Below are positions 1 to 56,155 of a DNA stretch of 56,847 nucleotides, piece by piece. The first letter of the stretch is position 1. The number at the start of each line of letters is the position of its first letter. Both the position numbers and the translations under genes were made by a program. Under the pieces are notes generated by a model, which worked only from the letters and a program-made list of their open reading frames with translations, ran no database searches and was not told the origin of the DNA. This stretch comes from Nitrospirota bacterium (GTDB lineage Bacteria > Nitrospirota > Thermodesulfovibrionia > UBA6902 > JACROP01). The stretch is taken from assembly GCA_016214385.1 (NCBI GenBank), contig JACROP010000108.1:1-56847 (forward strand), given 5' to 3'.

Positions 1-39
1 GACTTGATGTAGTCTTTACAATGAGACCCTTCGCAGGGC

Positions 40-471
40 TCAGGGTTTCGGCACCCATATCTTACCTTTATCAATGATATGTATTATCTCCCATCCCTTT
101 TTATGCATTGCCCTCGCAATATATCGCCTGTGACACTTCCATGGAAATCGCTCGGCGCATATTACTGCTGAGACCTTTGTTGTGGCAATCGTCTCTAAGA
201 GGATTGTTCCTTTTGCAAAATCTTCTGTGAGTGTATATGCCTGATAGCCGCCCTTTCTGAATCCTCCCAATTCTTTGCCTAAATGATAATACTCCAGGCC
301 ATTATTTTTGAGGAGACTCTCAAGATTTTCTTTCCGGAAATATTCGAGTTTGCTCACCGGAAAACTCCTTACATCAATGACAGCCTCTATCCCATAGGAA
401 TTAAGTATTTCAATGAAATCCTCTTCAGAACGGCGGCTCGTGCCGAGGGTGTAAAGTCTTCTTGCCTCCAT
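40..471 (-). CDS. DUF488 family protein
   Basis: 143-aa ORF. The N-terminus 'LYTLGTSRRSEEDFIEILNSYGIEAVIDVRSFP' fits the DUF488 pattern as I recall it. Confidence 0.7.
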   Translation of the reverse strand: MEARRLYTLGTSRRSEEDFIEILNSYGIEAVIDVRSFPVSKLEYFRKENLESLLKNNGLEYYHLGKELGGFRKGGYQAYTLTEDFAKGTILLETIATTKVSAVICAERFPWKCHRRYIARAMHKKGWEIIHIIDKGKIWVPKP

Positions 472-12097: not shown

Positions 12098-13477
12098 CTA
12101 TTTTGGGGTGATCTCTCCTATGAGGTCATAGGTCCGGGCTTCTTTAATTTTAACATCAACAATGTCTCCTTTTTTTAAATTATAATTCGACAAGCTCATT
12201 ACTGAAAACTGGTCAGCGGTTACTGGTAACTCAATCAGGGTTACCCCATCTATCTCAGGTGCCTGTCCCTTATACCTGCCGATGAAGACATCTCCATTCA
12301 CCCTCCCCCTCGCCCCCTCCCTCAAAGGGAGGGGGATGGGGGAGGGGAGGATTTCATCTATTAAGACCTTTTCAGTTTTCCCTATCATTGAAATATTTTT
12401 CCTGTAAGATATATCGGCCTGAAGGGCCATAAGCTCTTCTCTTCTTTCCTCTTTGATTTTCCCCGGGATATGGTTCTTCATTCTTGAGGCTGCTGTGCCC
12501 TCTTCCTTTGAATAGGCAAAGACCCCAAGCCTTTCAAATTCAGCCTCTTTTACGAATTTTAGGAGCTCTTTGAAATCATTTTCTGTTTCGCCAGGAAACC
12601 CAACTATCAGGGATGTCCGCAACACTATATCAGATACCCTTTTCCGTATCTTTTCAATAAGCTTTAGGTATTCTTTCCCGCTTCCTTTTCTTCCCATTTT
12701 TTTAAGTATCTCTGGACTACTGTGCTGAAGGGGAATGTCTAAATATTTACAGACTTTTTCCTCACGAGCCATTGTATTAATTAGCTCATCACTTATCTGT
12801 GATGGATAGGTATAGAGCAGTCTCAGCCACTGAAGCCCATTGATACTACAGAGGTTTTTTATAAGTTCTGGAAGGGCATTTTTGTCCCGAATATCGGGAA
12901 GGTCTATGCCGTAATTTGTTGTGTCCTGGGCAACGAGGATTAATTCTTTAACGCCATCGCTTATAAGGGAATGTGCTTCTTTTAAAAGTTCTTCGGAGGC
13001 TATGCTTTTGTAAGGCCCCCTGATTGATGGAATGACACAGTAAGTGCAGGCATTATTACAGCCCTCTGCAATCTTTAAGTATGCATAATGCTGATGGTCA
13101 AGCCTTGGTCTTGCTACTCTGGCGTTAAATGATTTTTTGTCTGCTCCGTCTGTTAGATATTCAATAATTTTTCTTTCTTCTCCGACGCCGAAGAAGGCGT
13201 TAACCTCTGAGAGTTCCTGCTTTAGTTCTTTCATATAACGTTCAGGAAGGCAGCCAAAGACCACAAGTTTTTTATTGAATTTCGATGCCTCAAAAATTGT
13301 CTCAATGGATTCTCTTTTTGCATCTTCAATAAAAGAACAGGTATTAACGAGAATTACATCGGCATCTTCAGGCTCAGAAGAGAGATAAATGTCGTTCTGC
13401 TGAAGCCCTGATAGGAGGTGTTCTCCGTCTACCTGATTTTTTGGGCAGCCGAGGTTTATTAAAAAAGCTTTTTTCAT
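12098..13477 (-). CDS. rimO: Ribosomal protein S12 methylthiotransferase RimO (MiaB family)
   Basis: UPF0004 N-domain 'NLGCPKNQVDGE', radical SAM 'CNNACTYC' and a C-terminal TRAM domain. It carries an in-frame palindromic insert at 12301-12349. Confidence 0.88.
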   Translation of the reverse strand: MKKAFLINLGCPKNQVDGEHLLSGLQQNDIYLSSEPEDADVILVNTCSFIEDAKRESIETIFEASKFNKKLVVFGCLPERYMKELKQELSEVNAFFGVGEERKIIEYLTDGADKKSFNARVARPRLDHQHYAYLKIAEGCNNACTYCVIPSIRGPYKSIASEELLKEAHSLISDGVKELILVAQDTTNYGIDLPDIRDKNALPELIKNLCSINGLQWLRLLYTYPSQISDELINTMAREEKVCKYLDIPLQHSSPEILKKMGRKGSGKEYLKLIEKIRKRVSDIVLRTSLIVGFPGETENDFKELLKFVKEAEFERLGVFAYSKEEGTAASRMKNHIPGKIKEERREELMALQADISYRKNISMIGKTEKVLIDEILPSPIPLPLREGARGRVNGDVFIGRYKGQAPEIDGVTLIELPVTADQFSVMSLSNYNLKKGDIVDVKIKEARTYDLIGEITPK

Positions 13478-13973: not shown

Positions 13974-14058
13974 AAATCCAAATTCCAAAATCCAAATGCC
14001 AAAGGAAGTTCAAAATCCAAATGTCAAATATTTGAAATTTGAACTTTGTCATTTGGAC
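13974..14058. repeat. Tandem AAATCCA-type simple repeat ending in a hairpin over the thiL stop
   Basis: 'aaatccaaattccaaaatccaaatgccaaa...caaaatccaaatgtcaaa'. There is an inverted arm 'tccaaatgtcaaa' / 'tttgtcatttgga'. Confidence 0.65.
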
Positions 14059-15065
14059 TTTTTAAAATGTTCATAGCCTTCAGGCCTGAATGGTGTCTCC
14101 TTGCCTGATGCATCCACCATGACTCTGCCTTTATTAGTTATTTCTCCAATCAGAGTCCCATTGACCTTTGACCCGGCAGGAGCTGTGAAAAGAAGCTCGT
14201 AATCCTCTCCGCCTTTCAGGGCAAGCTCTATCGGATTTATCTTCATCAGTTTTGAGGCTGATAAAAGCTCTTTGGAGATGGGTATTTTATTGAGATAAAT
14301 CTTTGCTCCTACATTGCTCTCCTCACATATGTGGCAGAGGTCTATAAGAAGGCCATCGCTTATATCTATCATGGCTGTTATGCCTGTTGTTGTTTTCAGG
14401 AATCTTGGCTCAGGCATTAGATGTCTCTTTAAAAGGGGAAGAACATTATAAAGGGAAAGTTGTGAATGGTAAATCTTAAAATTTAAATTTTTCATTTTGC
14501 ATTTTTCATTTTGCATTTTAACAGGTCTTTTCAGTCTTTTTAAGAGTATAAGCCCCATTGCAGAGTCTCCGAGGGTGCCGGTTACAAAGATGCTATCTCC
14601 TGCCCTCGCTCCTGAGCGTTTTATAACTGTATCGGTCTCGCCGAGGAGAGTTCCGCTCAGTATTAACCCATGTTTTGATGCGCATGTGTCCCCTCCGATT
14701 ATCTCTATTTTGTGTTTTTCTGCTAATGTCTTAATCCCTGAATAAAGTTCATCTATAGCCTGAGAGGTGTAACCACCAGGGATGCCAAGACCCAGGAGAA
14801 AATACTTTGGAGTGCCTCCCATTGCGCTGATATCGCTTATGTTTACTGCGAGGGTCTTATAGCCGAGCTGCAAAAGGGTGTAAAACCTGAGGTCAAAATG
14901 GATGCCCTCAAGGAGCATGTCAGTTGTAATGAGGAGCTTTTTCTTTGAAGGCCTGAGGGCTGCTGCATCATCTCCTATGCCTTCAAGCACCTGAGGGGAA
15001 ATCTTTTGCAGCGACTTTTTTAGCCTTCTTATAAGGCCGAACTCGCCAAGCTCTGAGAGCTTCAT
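14049..15065 (-). CDS. thiL: Thiamine-monophosphate kinase
   Basis: 'GIGDDAA', 'DISDG' and AIR-synthase-like domains. It contains an in-frame repeat insert at 14475-14520. Confidence 0.9.
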   Translation of the reverse strand: MKLSELGEFGLIRRLKKSLQKISPQVLEGIGDDAAALRPSKKKLLITTDMLLEGIHFDLRFYTLLQLGYKTLAVNISDISAMGGTPKYFLLGLGIPGGYTSQAIDELYSGIKTLAEKHKIEIIGGDTCASKHGLILSGTLLGETDTVIKRSGARAGDSIFVTGTLGDSAMGLILLKRLKRPVKMQNEKCKMKNLNFKIYHSQLSLYNVLPLLKRHLMPEPRFLKTTTGITAMIDISDGLLIDLCHICEESNVGAKIYLNKIPISKELLSASKLMKINPIELALKGGEDYELLFTAPAGSKVNGTLIGEITNKGRVMVDASGKETPFRPEGYEHFKKSK

Positions 15066-20775: not shown

Positions 20776-21822
20776 TTAATCGAAAGCAATAATACTTTTA
20801 AGTGCATCACTCGCCCGAGAAGTGAGCTTGAATGCCTCTGCTGTCTTTTCAACAGGGAACCTGTGGGTGATTAACTTTTCAGCCCCCACAACACCTTCTG
20901 ATATGAACCTGAGCGATTCCCTTGTATCTGTAGGGCCGCATGAGTAACTTGTGACTATATTTATATCCCTGAAATACAGGTGGTTAGGGTCTATTGTAAG
21001 ATTTTCCCCTGGCTTTACAGGTGTAAACAAAATCACTGTCCCACCCTTTGAAACAGCCTCTATCCCCTGTTTCACAGCCTCCACACTGTTTGGGCCAACA
21101 ATCACAACATCTGCCATAAAACCATCGGTCAAGTCCTTCGCTCTCTCTATGAGATTTTCTTTAGAGACATCTATGACATAATCAGCGCCAAACTCCAGTG
21201 CCTTATTCAGCCTGAATGGTACCATATCAGCGCCGATTATTTTTTCTATGCCGAATTCCCTGGCAAGTAGTATATGCATCTGTCCCATAACGCCGAGCCC
21301 GATGACAAGTATGGTGTCACCCTTTTTTATGGACGCCCTCTTTAAAGATTTAACAACACATGCAGTTGGCTCAATCAATGTCCCATCTTCATAGTCTATA
21401 TCTTCTGGAAGTATCAGCGTATCGTTTCTTAGATTTATCTCAGGTATGAGTATGTATTCAGAGATGCCGCCTGGGATTATCCTCGTGTCCCGCCATGTAT
21501 CACACTGGACATAATCGCCACGCTTGCAATATCTACAGGATTTTAAGTTTAGGCACGGCGCATGATGGTGAACAAATACCATGTCACCAACAGAAAGTGA
21601 CGAGTGACGAGTGACAAGTGACGAGCCTAATTCTACAATCTCACCCACTGGCTCGTGGCCTAACACGAGGGGCGCCTTCTTTTCTATATACCATGGCATC
21701 ACATCCCCTGAGCAGATGCCACAGGCCTTTGTCTTTATAAGTGCATCACGAGGGCCGATCTGCGGAATGGGGATATCTTCTATTCGTATATCGGTGAAGC
21801 TATAAAGCTTTGCTACTTTCAT
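20776..21822 (-). CDS. Zn-dependent medium-chain alcohol/polyol dehydrogenase
   Basis: 'CGICSGD', 'GHEPVGEI' and 'GLGVMG' Rossmann motifs. It contains a heptamer repeat at 21597-21624. Confidence 0.88.
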
Positions 21823-28668: not shown

Positions 28669-28741
28669 GTCATTCCCGCGAAGGCGGGAATCCAGAAAAA
28701 TAAAGTAAAAACTACTGGATTCCTGCTTCCGCAGGAATGAC
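28669..28741. repeat. GTCATTCC palindromic repeat (MITE/REP-like), copy A
   Basis: 'GTCATTCCCGCGAAGGCGGGAATCCAG...CTGGATTCCTGCTTCCGCAGGAATGAC'. Outer matching ends are 'tgtccg' (28635) and 'cggaca' (28805). Confidence 0.8.
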
Positions 28742-33598: not shown

Positions 33599-33732
33599 AA
33601 TGTCCTATGTCTCCTGTGGTTGTCATTCCGCACTTGATGCGGAATCCAGTATTTTGTACGTCTCTGGATTCCCGTTCCCCGATTACTACCTTCGGGGACA
33701 AGCTTCACGGGAATGACGAAATATAGGACATT
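33599..33732. repeat. GTCATTCC palindromic repeat, copy B (composite/nested)
   Basis: Terminal inverted ends are 'AATGTCCTAT' and 'ATAGGACATT'. The inner sequence is 'GTCATTCCGCACTTGATGCGGAATCCAG ... CTGGATTCCCGT[tccccgattactaccttcgggga]...CACGGGAATGAC'. Confidence 0.8.
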
Positions 33733-33796: not shown

Positions 33797-33875
33797 ATAA
33801 ATCAAAATGCAAAATTCAAAATGCAAAATTAAGGAATTCCATTATTTTGATATTTGATTTTTGATTTTGCTTGAA
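33797..33875. repeat. Tandem-heptamer hairpin (CAAAATG/CAAAATT arms)
   Basis: 'atcaaaatgcaaaattcaaaatgcaaaatt' is opposed by 'attttgatatttgatttttgattttgc'. It lies about 60 nt upstream of the dsrA RBS. Confidence 0.7.
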
Positions 33876-33931
33876 CCCTTTTTAGCAATTTTTTGGGAGA
33901 AGAACCAAATTTAAGTTTAAGGAGGGCGTTT

Positions 33932-35113
33932 ATGAGTAAGAAGTATGACACACCGTTGTTGGATGAGCTGGAAAAAGGTCCGTGGCCGAGCTTTGTAAAA
34001 GAGATTAAGAAGGCCGCAAAAAAGAGTGAAAGAGCAGCAGATGAATTAGGCCAGGTTGAGAAGTCTTACAAAACAAAGAGAGGTTACTGGAAGCACGGTG
34101 GTATTGTTGGTGTCCTCGGCTACGGGAGCGGAGTTATCGGGAGATATTCTTCCCTGCCAGAAGAATTTCCCGGAGTGGCTCATTTCCATACCGTGAGAAT
34201 AAACCAGCCCAGTGGTTGGTTCTACACAACAAAGGCGTTAAGAGAGATGTGCGATATGTGGGATAAATATGGTAGCGGGCTTACTAACATGCATGGCTCC
34301 ACAGGTGACATGATACTTCTCGGCACGAATACAGAAAGTCTCGAGCCCATTTTTGCCGAGTTTTCATCCCGCGGATGGGATCTCGGCGGCTCTGGCTCTG
34401 CGATGAGGACTCCGAGCTGCTGTGTTGGTCCTGGCCGCTGTGAATGGGCGAATATAGATACCCTCGATATTAACTATGCCCTTACACAGGAATTTCAGGA
34501 TGAACTTCACAGACCGTCATTCGCGTATAAATTTAAAATAAAGACCGCAGGTTGTGCTGTTGACTGTATCGCCGCAATTGCACGTGCTGATTTATCTATT
34601 ATCGGGACATGGAAAGGCGATATAAAGATCGACCAGGCTGAAGTAAAGAACTATGCTAAAAATGGAATGGACATCAATGCCGAGATAGTTGATATGTGTC
34701 CAACAGGTTGCATGAGTTATGACGGTAAGAAACTAAAGATAGAAGATGAGGACTGTAACAGATGTATGCACTGTATAGCAAAGATGACAAAGGCCCTCAG
34801 GCCTGGCGATGAAAGGGGCGCAACCCTCCTTATCGGGAGTAAAGCCCCGATTGTTGTGGGCGCAATGCTTTCGTGGGTCGTTGTGCCATTCATAAAGCTT
34901 GAGCCTCCGTATCAAGAATTGAAGGACCTTATCCGCAAGATTTTAGAGTGGTGGGATGAGAACGGAAAGGCCAGGGAGAGGATAGGGGAGGTCATAGAAC
35001 ACAAAGGCATGAGGTCATTCCTTGAGTATGTTGGTCTTCCACCAGTTCCCCAGATGATTAAGGAACCGAGAAGAGACCCGTTCTTCTTCTGGGCAGAGAA
35101 AGATTTAAAATAA
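33932..35113 (+). CDS. dsrA: Dissimilatory sulfite reductase alpha subunit
   Basis: The start at 33932 follows AAGGAGGG. '[22 protein letters not shown]', siroheme/FeS Cys clusters ('[10 protein letters not shown]', 'CAVDC') and a ferredoxin insert ('CPTGCM...CNRCMHC'). Confidence 0.95.
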
Positions 35114-35136: not shown

Positions 35137-36207
35137 ATGTCATTACCACAGAGAAAAACAGATATAGGGCCGCCTCATTATAAGCAGTTTCTTCCACCTG
35201 TAATCCAGAAGAATTATGGCCAGTGGAAGTATCACGAAGTGCTGGACCCCGGAACAATGGTGCATGTGGCGGAAAGCGGTGATAAGATATACACCGTGAG
35301 AGTTGCATCGCCGAGGCTTTTAAGCACTGATACTATCCGTGAGATCAGCGATATTGCAGATAAATACTGCGAAGGCTATCTTCGCTTTACCAGCAGAAAC
35401 AACATAGAGTTTCTCGTATCAGATAAGAGTAAGGTTGAGCCTCTTAAAAAAGAACTCAAAGACAAAGGCTACACTGTTGGAGGTATAGGCCCGAGGGTGA
35501 GCAATGTTGTTCATACTCAGGGATGGATTCACTGTCACAGTGCCTGCACCGATGCCTCTGGTCTGGTAAAGGCCATGATGGATGAACTTTACGATTACTT
35601 TACTACAAAAGAGCTCCCTAACAAGGTGAGGCTGGCAGTGGCGTGCTGTGTTAATATGTGTGGAGCTGTTCATTGTTCAGACATAGCCATAGTCGCTGTT
35701 CACAGGAAAGTACCAACGATAGACCATGGAAGGTTAGCGAATGTGTGCGAAATCCCTACAACCATAGCGTCCTGCCCCACACATGCTATAAGCCCTGACC
35801 CTGCAAAGAAAAGTGTAAAGATTAATCCTGACAGGTGCATGTACTGCGGAAACTGCTTTACTGTCTGTCCGCCAATAGATATCCATGACCCTGAAAATGA
35901 TGGTGTTGCCATAGTGGTGGGTGGAAAGGTCGGCAGCCTGAGGAGCAATCCAAAATTCTCCAAGCTCGCAATTCCTTTCTTTTACAACGAACCTCCACGG
36001 TGGCCAAAGGTTGTTGCTGCTGTAAAGAACATCCTTGAAACTTATGCCAGGCATGCAAAGCAACATGAAAGGGTAGGCGAGTGGATAGAGAGAATTGGCT
36101 GGGAAAAGTTCTTCAAGCTTACAGGCATTGAGTTTACATTCCAGCATATTGACGATTTCAAATTTGCCCGTGAGACCTTCAGGACAGCGGCGACATTTAA
36201 ATGGTAA
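35137..36207 (+). CDS. dsrB: Dissimilatory sulfite reductase beta subunit
   Basis: '[13 protein letters not shown]', 'CHSACTD', '[13 protein letters not shown]' and 'CPTHAI...[12 protein letters not shown]'. Confidence 0.95.
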
Positions 36208-36216
36208 ACTATAGTA

Positions 36217-36257
36217 GAGGTTGAGGTTGAGAGATACTTAACCTTAACCTCAACCTC
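36217..36257 (+). repeat. Tandem-heptamer hairpin between dsrB and dsrD
   Basis: 'gaggttgaggtt' (36217-36228) pairs perfectly with 'aacctcaacctc' (36246-36257). It lies immediately before the dsrD RBS AAGGAGG. Confidence 0.7.
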
Positions 36258-36274
36258 AATAAGGAGGTGGAGGG

Positions 36275-36520
36275 ATGGAGAAGGAAGAGATAAAACAGAA
36301 GATTTATGAATTATTAGAAAAATCAAAGGGCAAGAAAAAACTCAAAGAGAAAGATGTGATTAAAGCCATATCCGAGGAGACAGGAGTTGATAAGGACACT
36401 GTAAAGAAGGCTCTAAGAGAGATGATAGATGTTGGAAAAGTGATGTATTCGTATTCTGGCGGTGCCAGCTCTGTGGAGATCCCGAGTGAAGAGTACCTCA
36501 AAGAAAAAGGCCTTCTCTGA
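36275..36520 (+). CDS. dsrD: DsrD
   Basis: 81 aa, K/E-rich winged-helix-like, with a 'YSYSGGASS' motif analogous to the DsrD 'YWSSGSTT' motif. It lies directly after dsrB. Confidence 0.8.
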   Translation: MEKEEIKQKIYELLEKSKGKKKLKEKDVIKAISEETGVDKDTVKKALREMIDVGKVMYSYSGGASSVEIPSEEYLKEKGLL

Positions 36521-36568
36521 AGAAGTGAGAAGTGAGAACTTAACTTCCCATTTTCTACTTCCCACTTT
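36521..36568 (+). repeat. Tandem-heptamer hairpin between dsrD and dsrN
   Basis: 'gaagtgagaagtgagaac' is opposed by 'cttcccattttctacttcccacttt'. It is an imperfect stem, and the one mismatch checked in the best-matching stretch is A·C on the plus strand. Confidence 0.6.
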
Positions 36569-36571
36569 CAT

Positions 36572-38155
36572 ATGCTTAATTATTCAATTCCGAGGGTAGT
36601 TGTAGCAGGCCTCAGTGGCGGATGTGGTAAGACCATCCTTTCCATTGCCCTGATAGCGGCGTGGAGAAAAAAAGGCTTTAAAGTAGTCCCATTTAAGAAG
36701 GGGCCAGATTATATCGATGCGGGCTGGTTGGCCTCAGCAGCAGGCCAGCCCTGTTATAATCTGGACCCTTTTTTAATTGGTAAAGAGCAGCTTCTTTGTT
36801 CATTTGTAGAACACGCTTATGGAGCTCGGATTGCTGTTATTGAGGGCAACAGGGGCCTTTATGATGGTTTTGATGCTGAGGGCACTTACAGCACAGCCGA
36901 ACTTGCCAAATTGCTTCAAACACCTGTTATCGTAGTCATGGATTGCACAAAGGTAACACGCACTGCTGCTGCTCTGGTCCTGGGGCTCCAGAAATTTGAT
37001 CCATCAGTAAAGATTAAAGGTGTAATCTTGAATCAGGTTGCAGGTAAGCGACATGAATCTATATTGCGTGCAACAATAAATAAATACTGTAATGTGCCTG
37101 TATTGGGGGCTGTCCCAAAGCTGAAAGAGGCGACCTTGCCTGAGAGACATATGGGCCTTACCCCTTATCAGGAACACCCTGAAGTTGAAAAGGCTATTTC
37201 CGCTATCTTAGAGATAGCGCAGAATTATCTTGATTTAGATGAGATATGGAAGATTGCTAATGGGGCAGTGCCGCTTAAGGCAGAGACAAGAGACAAGAGA
37301 CAAGAGACCAATTCAGTGACAAGAGACAAGGGACAAGAGACAAGTAAATATAATAACTCGTCACTCGTCACTCGTCTCTCGTCTCTTGAAAAGTCACTCG
37401 TCACTCGTCACTCGTCTCTGGAAAAGTCACTCGTCTCTGAGCCTGCCCTGAGCCTGTCGAAGGGCCACTCGTCACTAAGAATCGGCGTTATCAAAGATAC
37501 TGCTTTCCAGTTTTATTATCCTGAAAACTTTGAGGAACTCGAAAGGCGTGGTGTCAGGATAGTTGAGATGAGTGCCCTAACAGAGAAAGAGCTTCCTGAC
37601 ATCGATGCCCTTTACATCGGTGGTGGTTTCCCTGAAACCCATGCAATAACCATTGCAGAGAATACTAATTTTCCAAACTCCCTGCGACAGGCCATTGAAA
37701 ATGGGCTCCCTGTTTATGCTGAGTGTGGAGGCTTGATGTATCTGGGGGAAAGCCTTGTATTAGAAAATAAAACATATCCTATGGCCGGTGTGCTGCCAGT
37801 GGTTTTCGGTCTGGAAAAGAGGCCCCAGGCACATGGATATTCAATAATAGAGGTAGATATGCCCAATCCATATTTTAGGACAGGCACTATTTTAAAAGGC
37901 CATGAATTTCATTATTCGAGTATTTTAGAGTTCAAAGAAAAAAATGGGGTATATACTGCTTTTAAAATGAAACGTGGACTTGGGATAATAGATAAAAGGG
38001 ATGGGTTGTGCTACAGGAATGTCTTAGCTACATATACCCATGTTCACGCCCTTGGGACGCCTGAATGGGTAGAGGGTATTATCAGCAGCGCAATAATGTA
38101 TAGAAAGCAAAGGAGTTTAGACGGTGGAGATAAAATTACTGAATTAACTAACTGA
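36572..38155 (+). CDS. dsrN: DsrN (cobyrinate a,c-diamide synthase-like amidase)
   Basis: CbiA ATPase domain ('GLSGGCGKT') and GATase domain ('AECGGLMYL'), downstream of dsrABD. A ~65-aa repeat-derived insert lies in the interdomain linker. Confidence 0.88.
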   Translation: MLNYSIPRVVVAGLSGGCGKTILSIALIAAWRKKGFKVVPFKKGPDYIDAGWLASAAGQPCYNLDPFLIGKEQLLCSFVEHAYGARIAVIEGNRGLYDGFDAEGTYSTAELAKLLQTPVIVVMDCTKVTRTAAALVLGLQKFDPSVKIKGVILNQVAGKRHESILRATINKYCNVPVLGAVPKLKEATLPERHMGLTPYQEHPEVEKAISAILEIAQNYLDLDEIWKIANGAVPLKAETRDKRQETNSVTRDKGQETSKYNNSSLVTRLSSLEKSLVTRHSSLEKSLVSEPALSLSKGHSSLRIGVIKDTAFQFYYPENFEELERRGVRIVEMSALTEKELPDIDALYIGGGFPETHAITIAENTNFPNSLRQAIENGLPVYAECGGLMYLGESLVLENKTYPMAGVLPVVFGLEKRPQAHGYSIIEVDMPNPYFRTGTILKGHEFHYSSILEFKEKNGVYTAFKMKRGLGIIDKRDGLCYRNVLATYTHVHALGTPEWVEGIISSAIMYRKQRSLDGGDKITELTN

Positions 38156-38163
38156 GGATCTGC

Positions 38164-38835
38164 ATGACCTTAAGGGAAAAGGTGGCAACCATGCTTGACA
38201 ACAGCAGGTTTGAAGAACTGACTGATTTAGGGCATAGAAATAAGGGCGTTTTTAGACATCTTATAGCCCTTACCTATAATAAAGAGAGTGCCATCTGCTG
38301 GAGGGCGATTGAGGCAATAGGGAAAATAACAGGTGTAATATCACAGGAGCATCCAGAGGTTGTAAGAAACCTTATCCAGCGTCTGCTCTGGTCTATGCGC
38401 GAAGAATCAGGCGGTATCGGATGGAGTATGGCAGAGATACTCGGAGAGATAATCAGAAACAGCCCTGACATTTTTTCTGACATCCTACCTATCGTGGTCT
38501 CTTTCCATGAGGAAGAGATGTTCAGGGCGGGTGTATTGAGGGCTATAGGAAGAATCGGCAGTATAAGCCCTGCTCTGGTGAATGCAAATATTCCATTAGT
38601 TAGATTCTACCTTGATGACCATAATCCTGACGTAAGGGCATCAGCAGCATGGACACTTGGGCAACTTAAGGCTGATGAGGGGATAGATGAGCTTCAGCGG
38701 TTATTGAACGACTGCACTCCTGTGACAATTTATGACAATGGCGAGCTTTTTCAGATGACTGTCGGAGAAGTGGCCAGGAAGGCTATGGCTATGATAAAAA
38801 ATAATGGGGAAAATGAAAAGTTTGACAAATATTAA
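38164..38835 (+). CDS. HEAT-repeat protein
   Basis: 'DDHNPDVRASAAWTLGQLKADEGIDELQRLLND' is a HEAT/PBS-lyase-type repeat. It starts 8 nt after the dsrN stop. Confidence 0.65.
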   Translation: MTLREKVATMLDNSRFEELTDLGHRNKGVFRHLIALTYNKESAICWRAIEAIGKITGVISQEHPEVVRNLIQRLLWSMREESGGIGWSMAEILGEIIRNSPDIFSDILPIVVSFHEEEMFRAGVLRAIGRIGSISPALVNANIPLVRFYLDDHNPDVRASAAWTLGQLKADEGIDELQRLLNDCTPVTIYDNGELFQMTVGEVARKAMAMIKNNGENEKFDKY

Positions 38836-53233: not shown

Positions 53234-53311
53234 GAGTAAAAAAGTTAAGAGTTAAGAGTTAAAAGTAAGGAGAGAACCCCTGTTTGGCAACTAATTGATA
53301 GTCGTAATAAT

Positions 53312-56086: not shown

Positions 56087-56155
56087 GTCATTCCCGTGAA
56101 AACGGGAATCCAGTAATTTCAATAGGTTCTGGATTCCTGCTTCCGCAGGAATGAC
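56087..56155. repeat. GTCATTCC palindromic repeat, copy D
   Basis: 'GTCATTCCCGTGAAAACGGGAATCCAG...CTGGATTCCTGCTTCCGCAGGAATGAC'. The right half is identical to copy A. Confidence 0.8.

Follow-up and report, generated by a model that had tools for sequence, protein, structure and literature searches.

How does a palindrome built of 7-nt tandem repeats come to lie, open and in frame, in the middle of an enzyme gene? The question is raised by dsrN on a 56,847-nt stretch of DNA from a Nitrospirota bacterium (contig JACROP010000108.1, positions 1 to 56,847; this whole stretch is called the window below). A repeat block at 37282-37477 of the window is read in frame between the ATPase and amidotransferase halves of DsrN. 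We consider it likely that this block is an inherited, locally expanded inverted heptanucleotide simple-sequence repeat (SSR), which is tolerated as a disordered spacer between the two domains. An earlier reading of the letters alone (the sequence-only reading) had proposed an in-frame block of about 65 codons in the DsrN interdomain linker. The block is real: its translation proved identical, the 527-aa open reading frame (ORF) that carries it is intact, and the other frames are closed.

The block consists of two arms on either side of a short loop. The 5' arm, 37282..37344 (+), is made of purine-rich heptamers, AAGAGAC/GAGACAA with the variants GTGACAA and GGGACAA, which are laid out as two 28-nt blocks at 33-nt spacing with CCAATTCAGT between them and are translated as ETRDKRQETNSVTRDKGQETS. 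The AT-rich loop TAAATATAATAA, 37345..37356 (+), supplies the codons K-Y-N-N and forms the unpaired apex of the minimum free energy (MFE) structure on both strands. The 3' arm, 37357..37439 (+), is made of the pyrimidine-rich inverse heptamers CTCGTCA/CTCGTCT, ordered in 33-nt units that each close in TTGAAAAG/TGGAAAAG. Tandem Repeats Finder recovered both arrays with a period of 7 (AGAGACA, 9.3 copies, 37282-37344; ACTCGTC, 9.0 copies, 37356-37416), in agreement with the heptamers, loop and inverse heptamers of the sequence-only reading. However, the block is not composed of heptamers alone. A 33-nt (11-codon) higher-order repeat is present in both arms, as 2.3 copies with 95% matches at 37360-37435 (Tandem Repeats Finder) and as a direct-repeat family with 33-nt spacing detected by repeat search in the 5' arm. 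In addition, 37440..37465 (+) is occupied by a non-heptamer tail, AGCCTGCCCTGAGCCTGTCGAAGGGC (peptide EPALSLSKG), which is a fragment of a different repeat type.

Exact heptamer runs in the block measure 27, 31 and 24 nt, and perfect units number four for AAGAGAC and three for CTCGTCA. Both arms contain at least three head-to-tail 7-nt units, as heptanucleotide SSRs do, and they lie as two close arrays with stem-loop potential, which is the arrangement of a convergent pair. The repeat search reports them as inverted arms of 70 nt each (37281-37350 and 37351-37420), 71% complementary and 0 nt apart. The last unit, CACTCGTCACTA, 37466..37477 (+), encodes H-S-S-L directly before the R-I-G-V start of the amidotransferase domain. 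The linker end '[NH]SSL' is conserved among orthologues (NSSL, HSSL, HPSL etc.), and the terminal H-S-S-L unit is the likely seed of the 3' arm array. The heptamer units are over-represented in the window: CTCGTCACTCGTCA, with up to 2 mismatches allowed, has 8 matches (0.11 expected), and AAGAGACAAGAGAC has 10 (0.60 expected). There is no second copy of the whole dsrN block in the 56.8-kb window, where only the heptamer unit recurs. The 18-nt core of the tail (37447-37464) has a copy with 3 mismatches at 27-44 (-), giving 2 matches where 0.02 are expected. The motif CCTGAGCC(TG)TCGAAGGG thus occurs twice in the window, at 27-44 (-) and 37447-37464, and is read as ALSLSKG or, on the opposite strand, as PFDRLRA. 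We take this motif to resemble a repeat whose translations abound in hypothetical proteins of many metagenome-assembled genomes (MAGs).

The history of the block can be traced through its orthologues. In 118 Nitrospirota orthologues the interdomain linker has a median length of 33 aa; the shortest has 20 aa, and the longest, with 72 aa, is that of the window. More distant DsrN loci, mostly from Desulfobacterota, have a linker of about 21-25 aa in most cases and show no structure signal. Most Nitrospirota linker peptides resemble translated heptamer or palindrome DNA (for example ETRDKGQ...NSSLVT, EVQSSKFKVQS...NSSLLTPHSSL, G.RDLGLGI...NPQSPTPNP, SNQRSAISSQQL and ...PPFTKGGMGG). Orthologue DNA was obtained via the contigs that encode selected proteins (a contig scan gave at best 57% identity among the matches listed), and wherever it was fetched the linker was confirmed to be repeat-built. 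The units differ from locus to locus: ATAGGCN/GCCTAT in L003 (z about -6), GGGATTA/TAACCCC in L006 (z -4.0 on the + strand and -9.1 on the - strand), AAGTTCA/CTCCTCA in L206 and L205, GGGATTR/CCCATCA in L207, GC-rich palindromes in L008 and L208, and a perfect 26-bp hairpin in L076; the L081 linker, too, is built from other heptamers or palindromes. Several of these repeat-built linkers fold far better than shuffled controls. Orthologues with a similar linker of non-repetitive DNA, which the sequence-only reading had named as evidence against it, did not appear.

On a neighbour-joining tree of the DsrN protein with the linker removed, linker types are clade-specific. The window type (type B) is common to P0078, P0084 and P0012, and in part to P0063. 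Three orthologous loci, L084, L209 and L210 (57-60% identity), contain shorter linkers whose DNA is homologous to the window block and can be aligned with it at both ends, GCTTAA..AGAGACAAGAGACAAG and ATAACTCGTCAC..TTAAAATCGG; on the tree, their proteins and that of the window belong to a single clade. Type-B linkers measure 27 aa in L209, 40 in L210, 48 in L084 and 72 in the window, which is copy-number variation at one locus among related genomes, as is typical of an SSR. The shortest of them, in L209, has two GAGACAA units, and its 3' side is just CTCATCACT. The tail also has a diverged counterpart in L084 when judged by eye, although the MAFFT alignment leaves L084 gapped in those columns. 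Shorter homologous linkers at the same site, aligned ends and clade-specific types argue for in-situ expansion of an inherited linker, not for a fresh insertion. The series of 27, 40, 48 and 72 aa is natural material for the study of linker growth. Inserts of the 'PPLPPFAKGG...GGF' type were also seen in other DsrN loops, after about aa 84 in the ATPase domain and within the amidotransferase domain (P0093, P0108, P0115, P0028, P0051 and P0069; alignment columns 101-160 and 545-585), so the linker is not the sole permissive site of this protein.

Heptamers can remain in a gene only on certain terms. The gene frame is the sole open frame across the block, and a 7-nt slip in either direction leads to a stop at aa 246, 260, 290 or 291. 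Because every 21 nt of a tandem heptamer pass through all three reading phases, any stop in the cyclic unit is fatal, and the unit GAGTGAC contains TGA. A metagenome scan for (GAGTGAC)x3 returned at least 80 loci with GC contents of 0.39-0.75. Among the metagenomic arrays listed, the GAGTGAC strand is open in none of 80. Many long metagenomic ORFs, by contrast, run through the array on the CTCGTCA strand, and Pfam verified nine array-carrying enzymes (ferrochelatase, HemN-like radical SAM, AIRS/PurM-like, PGM, Zn-ADH-like, MiaA, ArgRS and AMP-binding proteins, and an ADH-like gene of the window itself). In the dsrN block, the 5' arm unit AAGAGAC departs from the exact complement GAGTGAC at two positions per unit. 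One of them, A for T, yields A·A mismatches and abolishes the in-frame TGA; the other, A for G, yields A·C on the + strand and G·U on the - strand. Survivors are limited to frame-keeping variants (net change divisible by 3) whose sense-strand heptamers are stop-free in every phase. This filter accounts for the restriction of the TGA-bearing complement GAGTGAC to the antisense strand and for the A in the 5' arm where perfect complementarity calls for T. Repeats of 7 nt can last long inside genes when their three phases are stop-free, and the resulting rule of orientation is easily read: the TGA-bearing strand is never the sense strand. A similar restriction is known from Beggiatoaceae, whose TAACTGA repeats can lie inside ORFs only in orientations that the stop codons permit (PMC4679880).

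The two strands of the block fold very differently. Over 37270-37490, the + strand reaches -69.8 kcal/mol (z -2.65; 1 of 200 shuffles was as good) and the - strand -101 kcal/mol (z -6.85; 0 of 200). Paired without gaps, the arms form 50 Watson-Crick pairs; the other positions are 8 A·C, 8 A·A, 1 G·T and 3 of further kinds. The remark that arm mismatches tend to be A·C on the sense strand, hence G·U on antisense RNA, was right and even understated, since there are eight A·C positions, and the MFE structure holds nine G·U pairs on the minus strand versus one on the plus strand. All eight A·C positions correspond to one heptamer position, with the substitution repeated unit by unit. Because every A·C sits at this identical position, they amount to about one event copied along the array. 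The A·C and A·A differences are therefore one or two mutational events spread by array homogenisation, not independent compensations. The antisense strand is also the better folder in L006, L205, L206, L084 and L208. We read this preference as a by-product of sense-strand constraints, perhaps including selection against a very stable hairpin in translated mRNA. Owing to the periodic A·C and A·A mismatches, the hairpin of the sense mRNA is far less stable than its antisense counterpart, which could aid translation and prevent termination or cleavage.

Two other approaches to this asymmetry were abandoned. A replication-strand mutational bias was rejected as the source of the G·U pairs, as there is no uniform strand bias: GC and AT skew within the window track gene orientation, and of the neighbouring intergenic hairpins the one between dsrB and dsrD folds better on the + strand and the one between dsrD and dsrN slightly better on the - strand. 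A comparison of sense and antisense energies of metagenomic hairpins was dropped as biased, since the search pattern preset the G-version of the arm.

The ORF at 36572..38155 (+) encodes a DsrN-type protein of the cobyrinic/siroheme a,c-diamide synthase family in which the full set of family-invariant residues is kept. Pfam places CbiA at aa 9-194 and GATase_3 (CobB/CobQ-type) at aa 303-495, and the NCBIfam model TIGR00379 (cobB) matches with 450 bits, the match being broken in two at about aa 248. Upstream lie two NIR_SIR-type ORFs, dsrA (33893-35113) and dsrB (35137-36207), followed by a DsrD-like ORF of 81 aa between dsrB and dsrN (PF08679, 23.8 bits, slightly below the 24.2-bit cutoff). 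The order dsrA-dsrB-dsrD-dsrN(-dsrC) is common to orthologous contigs. Given the CbiA and GATase_3 domains and the adjacency to dsrAB(D), repeated in orthologous loci, the label dsrN is a reasonable assignment from sequence. The top protein matches come from MAGs named Nitrospiraceae, Nitrospirota or Thermodesulfovibrionales.

An AlphaFold2 model computed from a 28-sequence alignment is confident in the ATPase domain and mixed in the amidotransferase half. Its predicted local distance difference test score (pLDDT) falls below 50, to about 40, at aa 241-256 and 258-292. The model thus predicts that the block is a disordered spacer at about aa 241-292. A sequence-based search for a solved structure of a full-length DsrN homologue returned matches limited to GatD/CobQ-type amidotransferase domains, so the linker cannot be placed on an experimental structure. 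With a linker that tolerates 20-72 residues, DsrN itself is probably little altered by the block, and the spacer is probably neutral, or nearly so, for siroheme amidation.

Taken as an expanded SSR, the block would have arisen as follows. Within the naturally hypervariable DsrN linker, the ancestor of a subclade of Nitrospirota (Thermodesulfovibrionia) would have carried a shorter version of an inverted pair, (AAGAGAC)n, an AT loop and (CTCGTCA/T)n. This version would have grown in place by about 135 nt in the window lineage, through slipped-strand mispairing of 7-nt units combined with 33-nt (11-codon, frame-neutral) duplications in both arms, and its low-complexity translation would serve as a tether between two independently folding domains. 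Several points weigh against this account. Independent slippage in the two arms leaves their complementarity and the shared 33-nt periodicity unexplained, for which inter-arm templating or palindromic duplication may be responsible. The frame does not survive the slip of one 7-nt unit, so that growth would have to proceed in steps of 21 or 33 nt or through events that compensate each other. The stop-codon argument alone does not fully account for the strength of antisense folding, given the -101 kcal/mol of the antisense strand and the better antisense folding in several independent linkers (L006, L205/L206 and L084). The closest orthologue, P0002 (77% identity), has a linker of another type, with GTCAGCA units and another palindrome; replacement or turnover occurs as well, and simple expansion is not the whole history. 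Lastly, the block and its copy number rest on one contig.

The dsrN block is not the only array of its kind. A second CTCGTCA array, of four units at 21596..21625 (-), is translated in frame as part of a loop in a Zn-dependent dehydrogenase-like ORF at 20776..21822 (-), which matches Pfam ADH_N and ADH_zinc_N and whose product is 77% identical to a homologue in Dissulfurispira thermophila. Among 120 homologues of this ADH-like protein the basal form of the loop is VGK[DE]VTSFK[AP]GD, and most of the others contain varied, repeat-derived replacements. L149, a metagenomic ADH-like protein only 31% identical to that of the window, has the identical array in the same loop. Many of the listed metagenomic loci are long hairpins with nearly perfect pairing, built as (GAGTGAC)n-loop-(GTCACTC/GTCACTT)n, and others are one-armed arrays or nested palindromes of several heptamers. 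L096, L104, L136 and L164 are intergenic cases with the same convergent-array architecture as dsrN. Flank logos of 78 CTCGTCA arrays among the matches listed are flat. Unrelated flanks and an arbitrary end phase are typical of an SSR and do not fit an element whose ends are fixed. For annotation, SAISHQPSA-like peptides in conserved enzymes are translated heptamer repeats, not functional motifs. When dsrN and other marker genes are aligned, translated repeats also make the sequences look more divergent and more variable in length than they are.

How do these arrays compare with described systems? Bacteria have an excess of heptamer SSRs, which can form convergent pairs and in some cases lie within genes; Xanthomonas has 70-75 convergent heptamer pairs per genome, 7-11% of them intragenic, and the intragenic share is larger in Anabaena (PMC4692102). 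The units are GGGAATC in Xanthomonas and GGGGA(C/T)T in Nostoc/Anabaena, and the cyanobacterial short tandemly repeated repetitive (STRR) sequences are cited in the same paper (PMC4692102). The arrays studied here resemble these SSRs in their head-to-tail 7-nt units and variable copy number, in often forming two convergent arrays capable of a stem-loop, in being dispersed over the genome in mostly but not only intergenic positions, and in the limits that stops set on their orientation within ORFs. Some DsrN linkers of the clade, in L006 and L207, even use GGGATTA/GGGGATT-type units. On the other hand, the dsrN arms both lie inside one ORF and are translated, their unit AAGAGAC/CTCGTCA is not G-quadruplex-forming, the arrays carry a 33-nt higher-order repeat, and the same DsrN site is held by different heptamer families in different orthologues. 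Membership in the STRR sequences fails, as these have specific units and belong to heterocystous cyanobacteria, whereas AAGAGAC and CTCGTCA are repeated here in a member of the Nitrospirota. The small dispersed repeats of Nostoc reported by Elhai et al. in 2008 are said to be elements embedded in tandem heptamers, and we do not use them as evidence. Long-term in-frame persistence, as seen in dsrN linkers, is not described for the repeats of Xanthomonas and cyanobacteria (PMC4692102) or of Beggiatoaceae (PMC4679880). Two features appear undescribed in the searchable literature: translation of both arms, and a clade in which one protein site is taken up time and again by heptamers of different families.

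In-ORF repeats are also found in Borg elements, which are archaeal and extrachromosomal; tandem direct repeats within their ORFs create disordered protein regions, and the abstract that describes them mentions no inverted partner (PMC9879509). The dsrN arrays are similar in being fast-evolving tandem DNA repeats within an ORF that yield low-complexity, disordered segments, and differ in being paired as a palindrome on a bacterial chromosome. The units of Borg in-ORF repeats are reportedly divisible by three, whereas the dsrN unit of 7 nt causes all three frames to be read.

The recurrence of such arrays raises a broader alternative, which we hold to be unlikely: some active process in Thermodesulfovibrionia-type Nitrospirota, and perhaps more widely, would make inverted heptamer arrays that settle again and again at the same tolerant loops and linkers in housekeeping proteins. 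Such sites are the DsrN linker, the Zn-ADH-like loop, ThiL and a RimO-like TRAM domain here, and ferrochelatase, ArgRS, MiaA and others in metagenomes. Repeat synthesis templated by a hairpin or fold-back and unit-level copy-paste between arrays may be candidates. If this were true, the process would be a bacterial, SSR-based counterpart of the Rickettsia palindromic elements (RPEs), continually creating and remodelling disordered segments. The dsrN block would be its largest visible product, and the strong antisense pairing could reflect the polarity of the process instead of chance. A dedicated process behind recurrent loop colonisation would be a new source of protein disorder in bacteria.

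We regard as still less probable that the block is a mobile palindromic element, of the kind of a miniature inverted-repeat transposable element (MITE) or an RPE, which landed in frame in the tolerant dsrN linker. The sequence-only reading had favoured a domesticated MITE-like element reminiscent of RPEs. RPEs are the classic in-frame palindromic inserts and prove that such insertions happen (PMC10969869). The dsrN block is likewise palindromic, in frame and stop-free in an intact host gene, the region is compatible with the protein fold, and a peptide has been added without destroying function. The heptamer array also recurs in a second window gene and in many unrelated genes and phyla, two ADH-like proteins of 31% identity share it in the same loop, and the closest DsrN orthologue has a different linker type. 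However, RPEs are elements of about 150 bp that belong to defined families, have a conserved consensus and peptide and are present as copies in many genes, whereas the dsrN arrays and their relatives share only the 7-nt unit, with undefined ends and no unit-length element, and the block was inherited and expanded in situ in a free-living member of the Nitrospirota. The likeness to RPEs therefore holds for a tolerated palindrome of repeat-derived DNA read in frame in a permissive region, and ends at the lack of a dispersed consensus element of about 100-150 bp.

Like MITEs and repetitive extragenic palindromic sequences and their hairpin doublets (REP/REPIN), the block is palindromic DNA of a non-coding type that is abundant in the genome and capable of a hairpin. 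Its arms, though, are tandem arrays, not terminal inverted repeats (TIRs) that bound an element, and there is no convincing target-site duplication, no TIR-flanked unique core, no fixed length and no known relation to a transposase or to a REP-associated tyrosine transposase (RAYT). The CTTAA-like flanks (CTTAAG, CTAAGA) are conserved P-L-K and S-L-K/R codons and are found beside other linkers as well. The 78 metagenomic CTCGTCA arrays have no conserved termini and end in any unit phase. The arms do not travel together, as one arm stands nearly without its partner in L209 and P0025, and the shorter homologous versions at the same site, with their clade-specific types, speak against an insertion. 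The domesticated MITE-like element is thus not supported, and the mobile-element reading is only partly right; the block fits the inverted-heptamer-SSR kind and fails as a member of either the RPEs or the MITEs.

It is very improbable that the block is the gene or the template of a functional, structured antisense RNA, or gives rise to a DNA cruciform, with G·U-tolerant pairing preserved on the minus strand. This idea draws on the gap between the z scores of the two strands, on the nine G·U pairs versus one, and on the superior antisense folding in five other linkers. Nevertheless, the eight A·C positions are about one copied substitution, not eight compensations, and the homologous linkers L084 (z about +1.2) and L209 (-8.7/-12.3 kcal/mol) have a weak hairpin or none. 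The minus strand of 36100-38300 showed nothing that resembles a promoter, and the block showed no terminator-like site. An E-value scan of the same interval against Rfam gave only sub-threshold matches to microRNA precursors and no family assignment (best MIR1523, 27.9 bits against a gathering score of 96), and the genes neighbouring dsrN are all on the + strand. The G·U pairs thus lose their value as a hint of a functional antisense RNA.

A phase-variation (contingency) switch is more doubtful still. In that case the gain or loss of one unit would truncate DsrN after the ATPase domain and so toggle siroheme amidation. The four perfect AAGAGAC and three perfect CTCGTCA units are suggestive, as are the stops at aa 246-291 after a shift of 7 nt either way, and heptanucleotide tracts drive phase variation in Haemophilus influenzae (PMC8262952). 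But the organism is free-living and metabolises sulfur, and the gene is part of its core dsr operon; the tracts are interrupted and of small length, the orthologous versions are decayed and non-slippery, and similar arrays are found in housekeeping enzymes (ArgRS, MiaA, PurM-like) in which switching is implausible. It is just as improbable that an assembler working on short, repeat-rich reads created the block or gave it a false length: although tandem and inverted repeats are prone to assembler error and the protein cluster has one member from a single contig, the length preserves the sole open reading frame, the imperfect repeats and unit variants would anchor reads, the flanking codons are conserved, and homologous repeat linkers are present in three independent assemblies from other samples.

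Several further repeats were noticed in the window and in the metagenomic loci. Intergenic hairpins or arrays of hexamers and heptamers are located at 36217-36260, 36521-36569, 33799-33869, 13974-14058 and 53243-53266. Their units are GAGGTT between dsrB and dsrD, AGAAGTG between dsrD and dsrN, AAATGCA upstream of dsrA, TCCAAAT at about 13.97-14.06 kb and AGTTAAG at about 53.24 kb. Orthologous dsr operons contain hairpins in the same spacers with other sequences.

Two more window genes have in-frame repeats. A ThiL-like gene at 14049..15065 (-), with AIRS/AIRS_C domains, contains a 7/14-nt array at 14487-14519 (ATTTTTCATTTTGC, 2.4 copies), which is read as VKMQNEKCKMKNLNFK. A RimO/MiaB-like methylthiotransferase gene at 12098..13477 (-) contains the GC-rich palindrome CCCTCCCCCTCGCCCCCTCCCTCAAAGGGAGGGGGATGGGGGAGGGG at 12297-12350, within its TRAM domain and read as LPSPIPLPLREGARGRV; the TRAM match of this protein spans 92 aa over 62 profile positions. 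Classical REP-like palindromes, GTCATTCCCGCGAAGGCGGGAATCCAG ... CTGGATTCC..GGAATGAC, are present at 28669-28695, 56087-56113 and about 33621-33720, and this REP-like element recurs downstream of dsrN in L081 and in the metagenomic locus L162.

In-frame inverted heptamer inserts were also seen in metagenomic proteins. The ADH-like protein of L149 has one, AEVRSQNSEVRSKNPPFALQPSAFSL, at about aa 270-300 of the ORF, a HemN-like protein contains DEGGRRKAEENFHPSSFILSPS, the insert of L100 includes ESGVRSQESGG, and L124 and L107 are listed with such inserts. Finally, positions 180-440 of L146 form a nested palindrome of three heptamer families (GGTATCA, GTGATGA and GTGACGA, with their inverses) inside the ORF of an AMP-binding enzyme.

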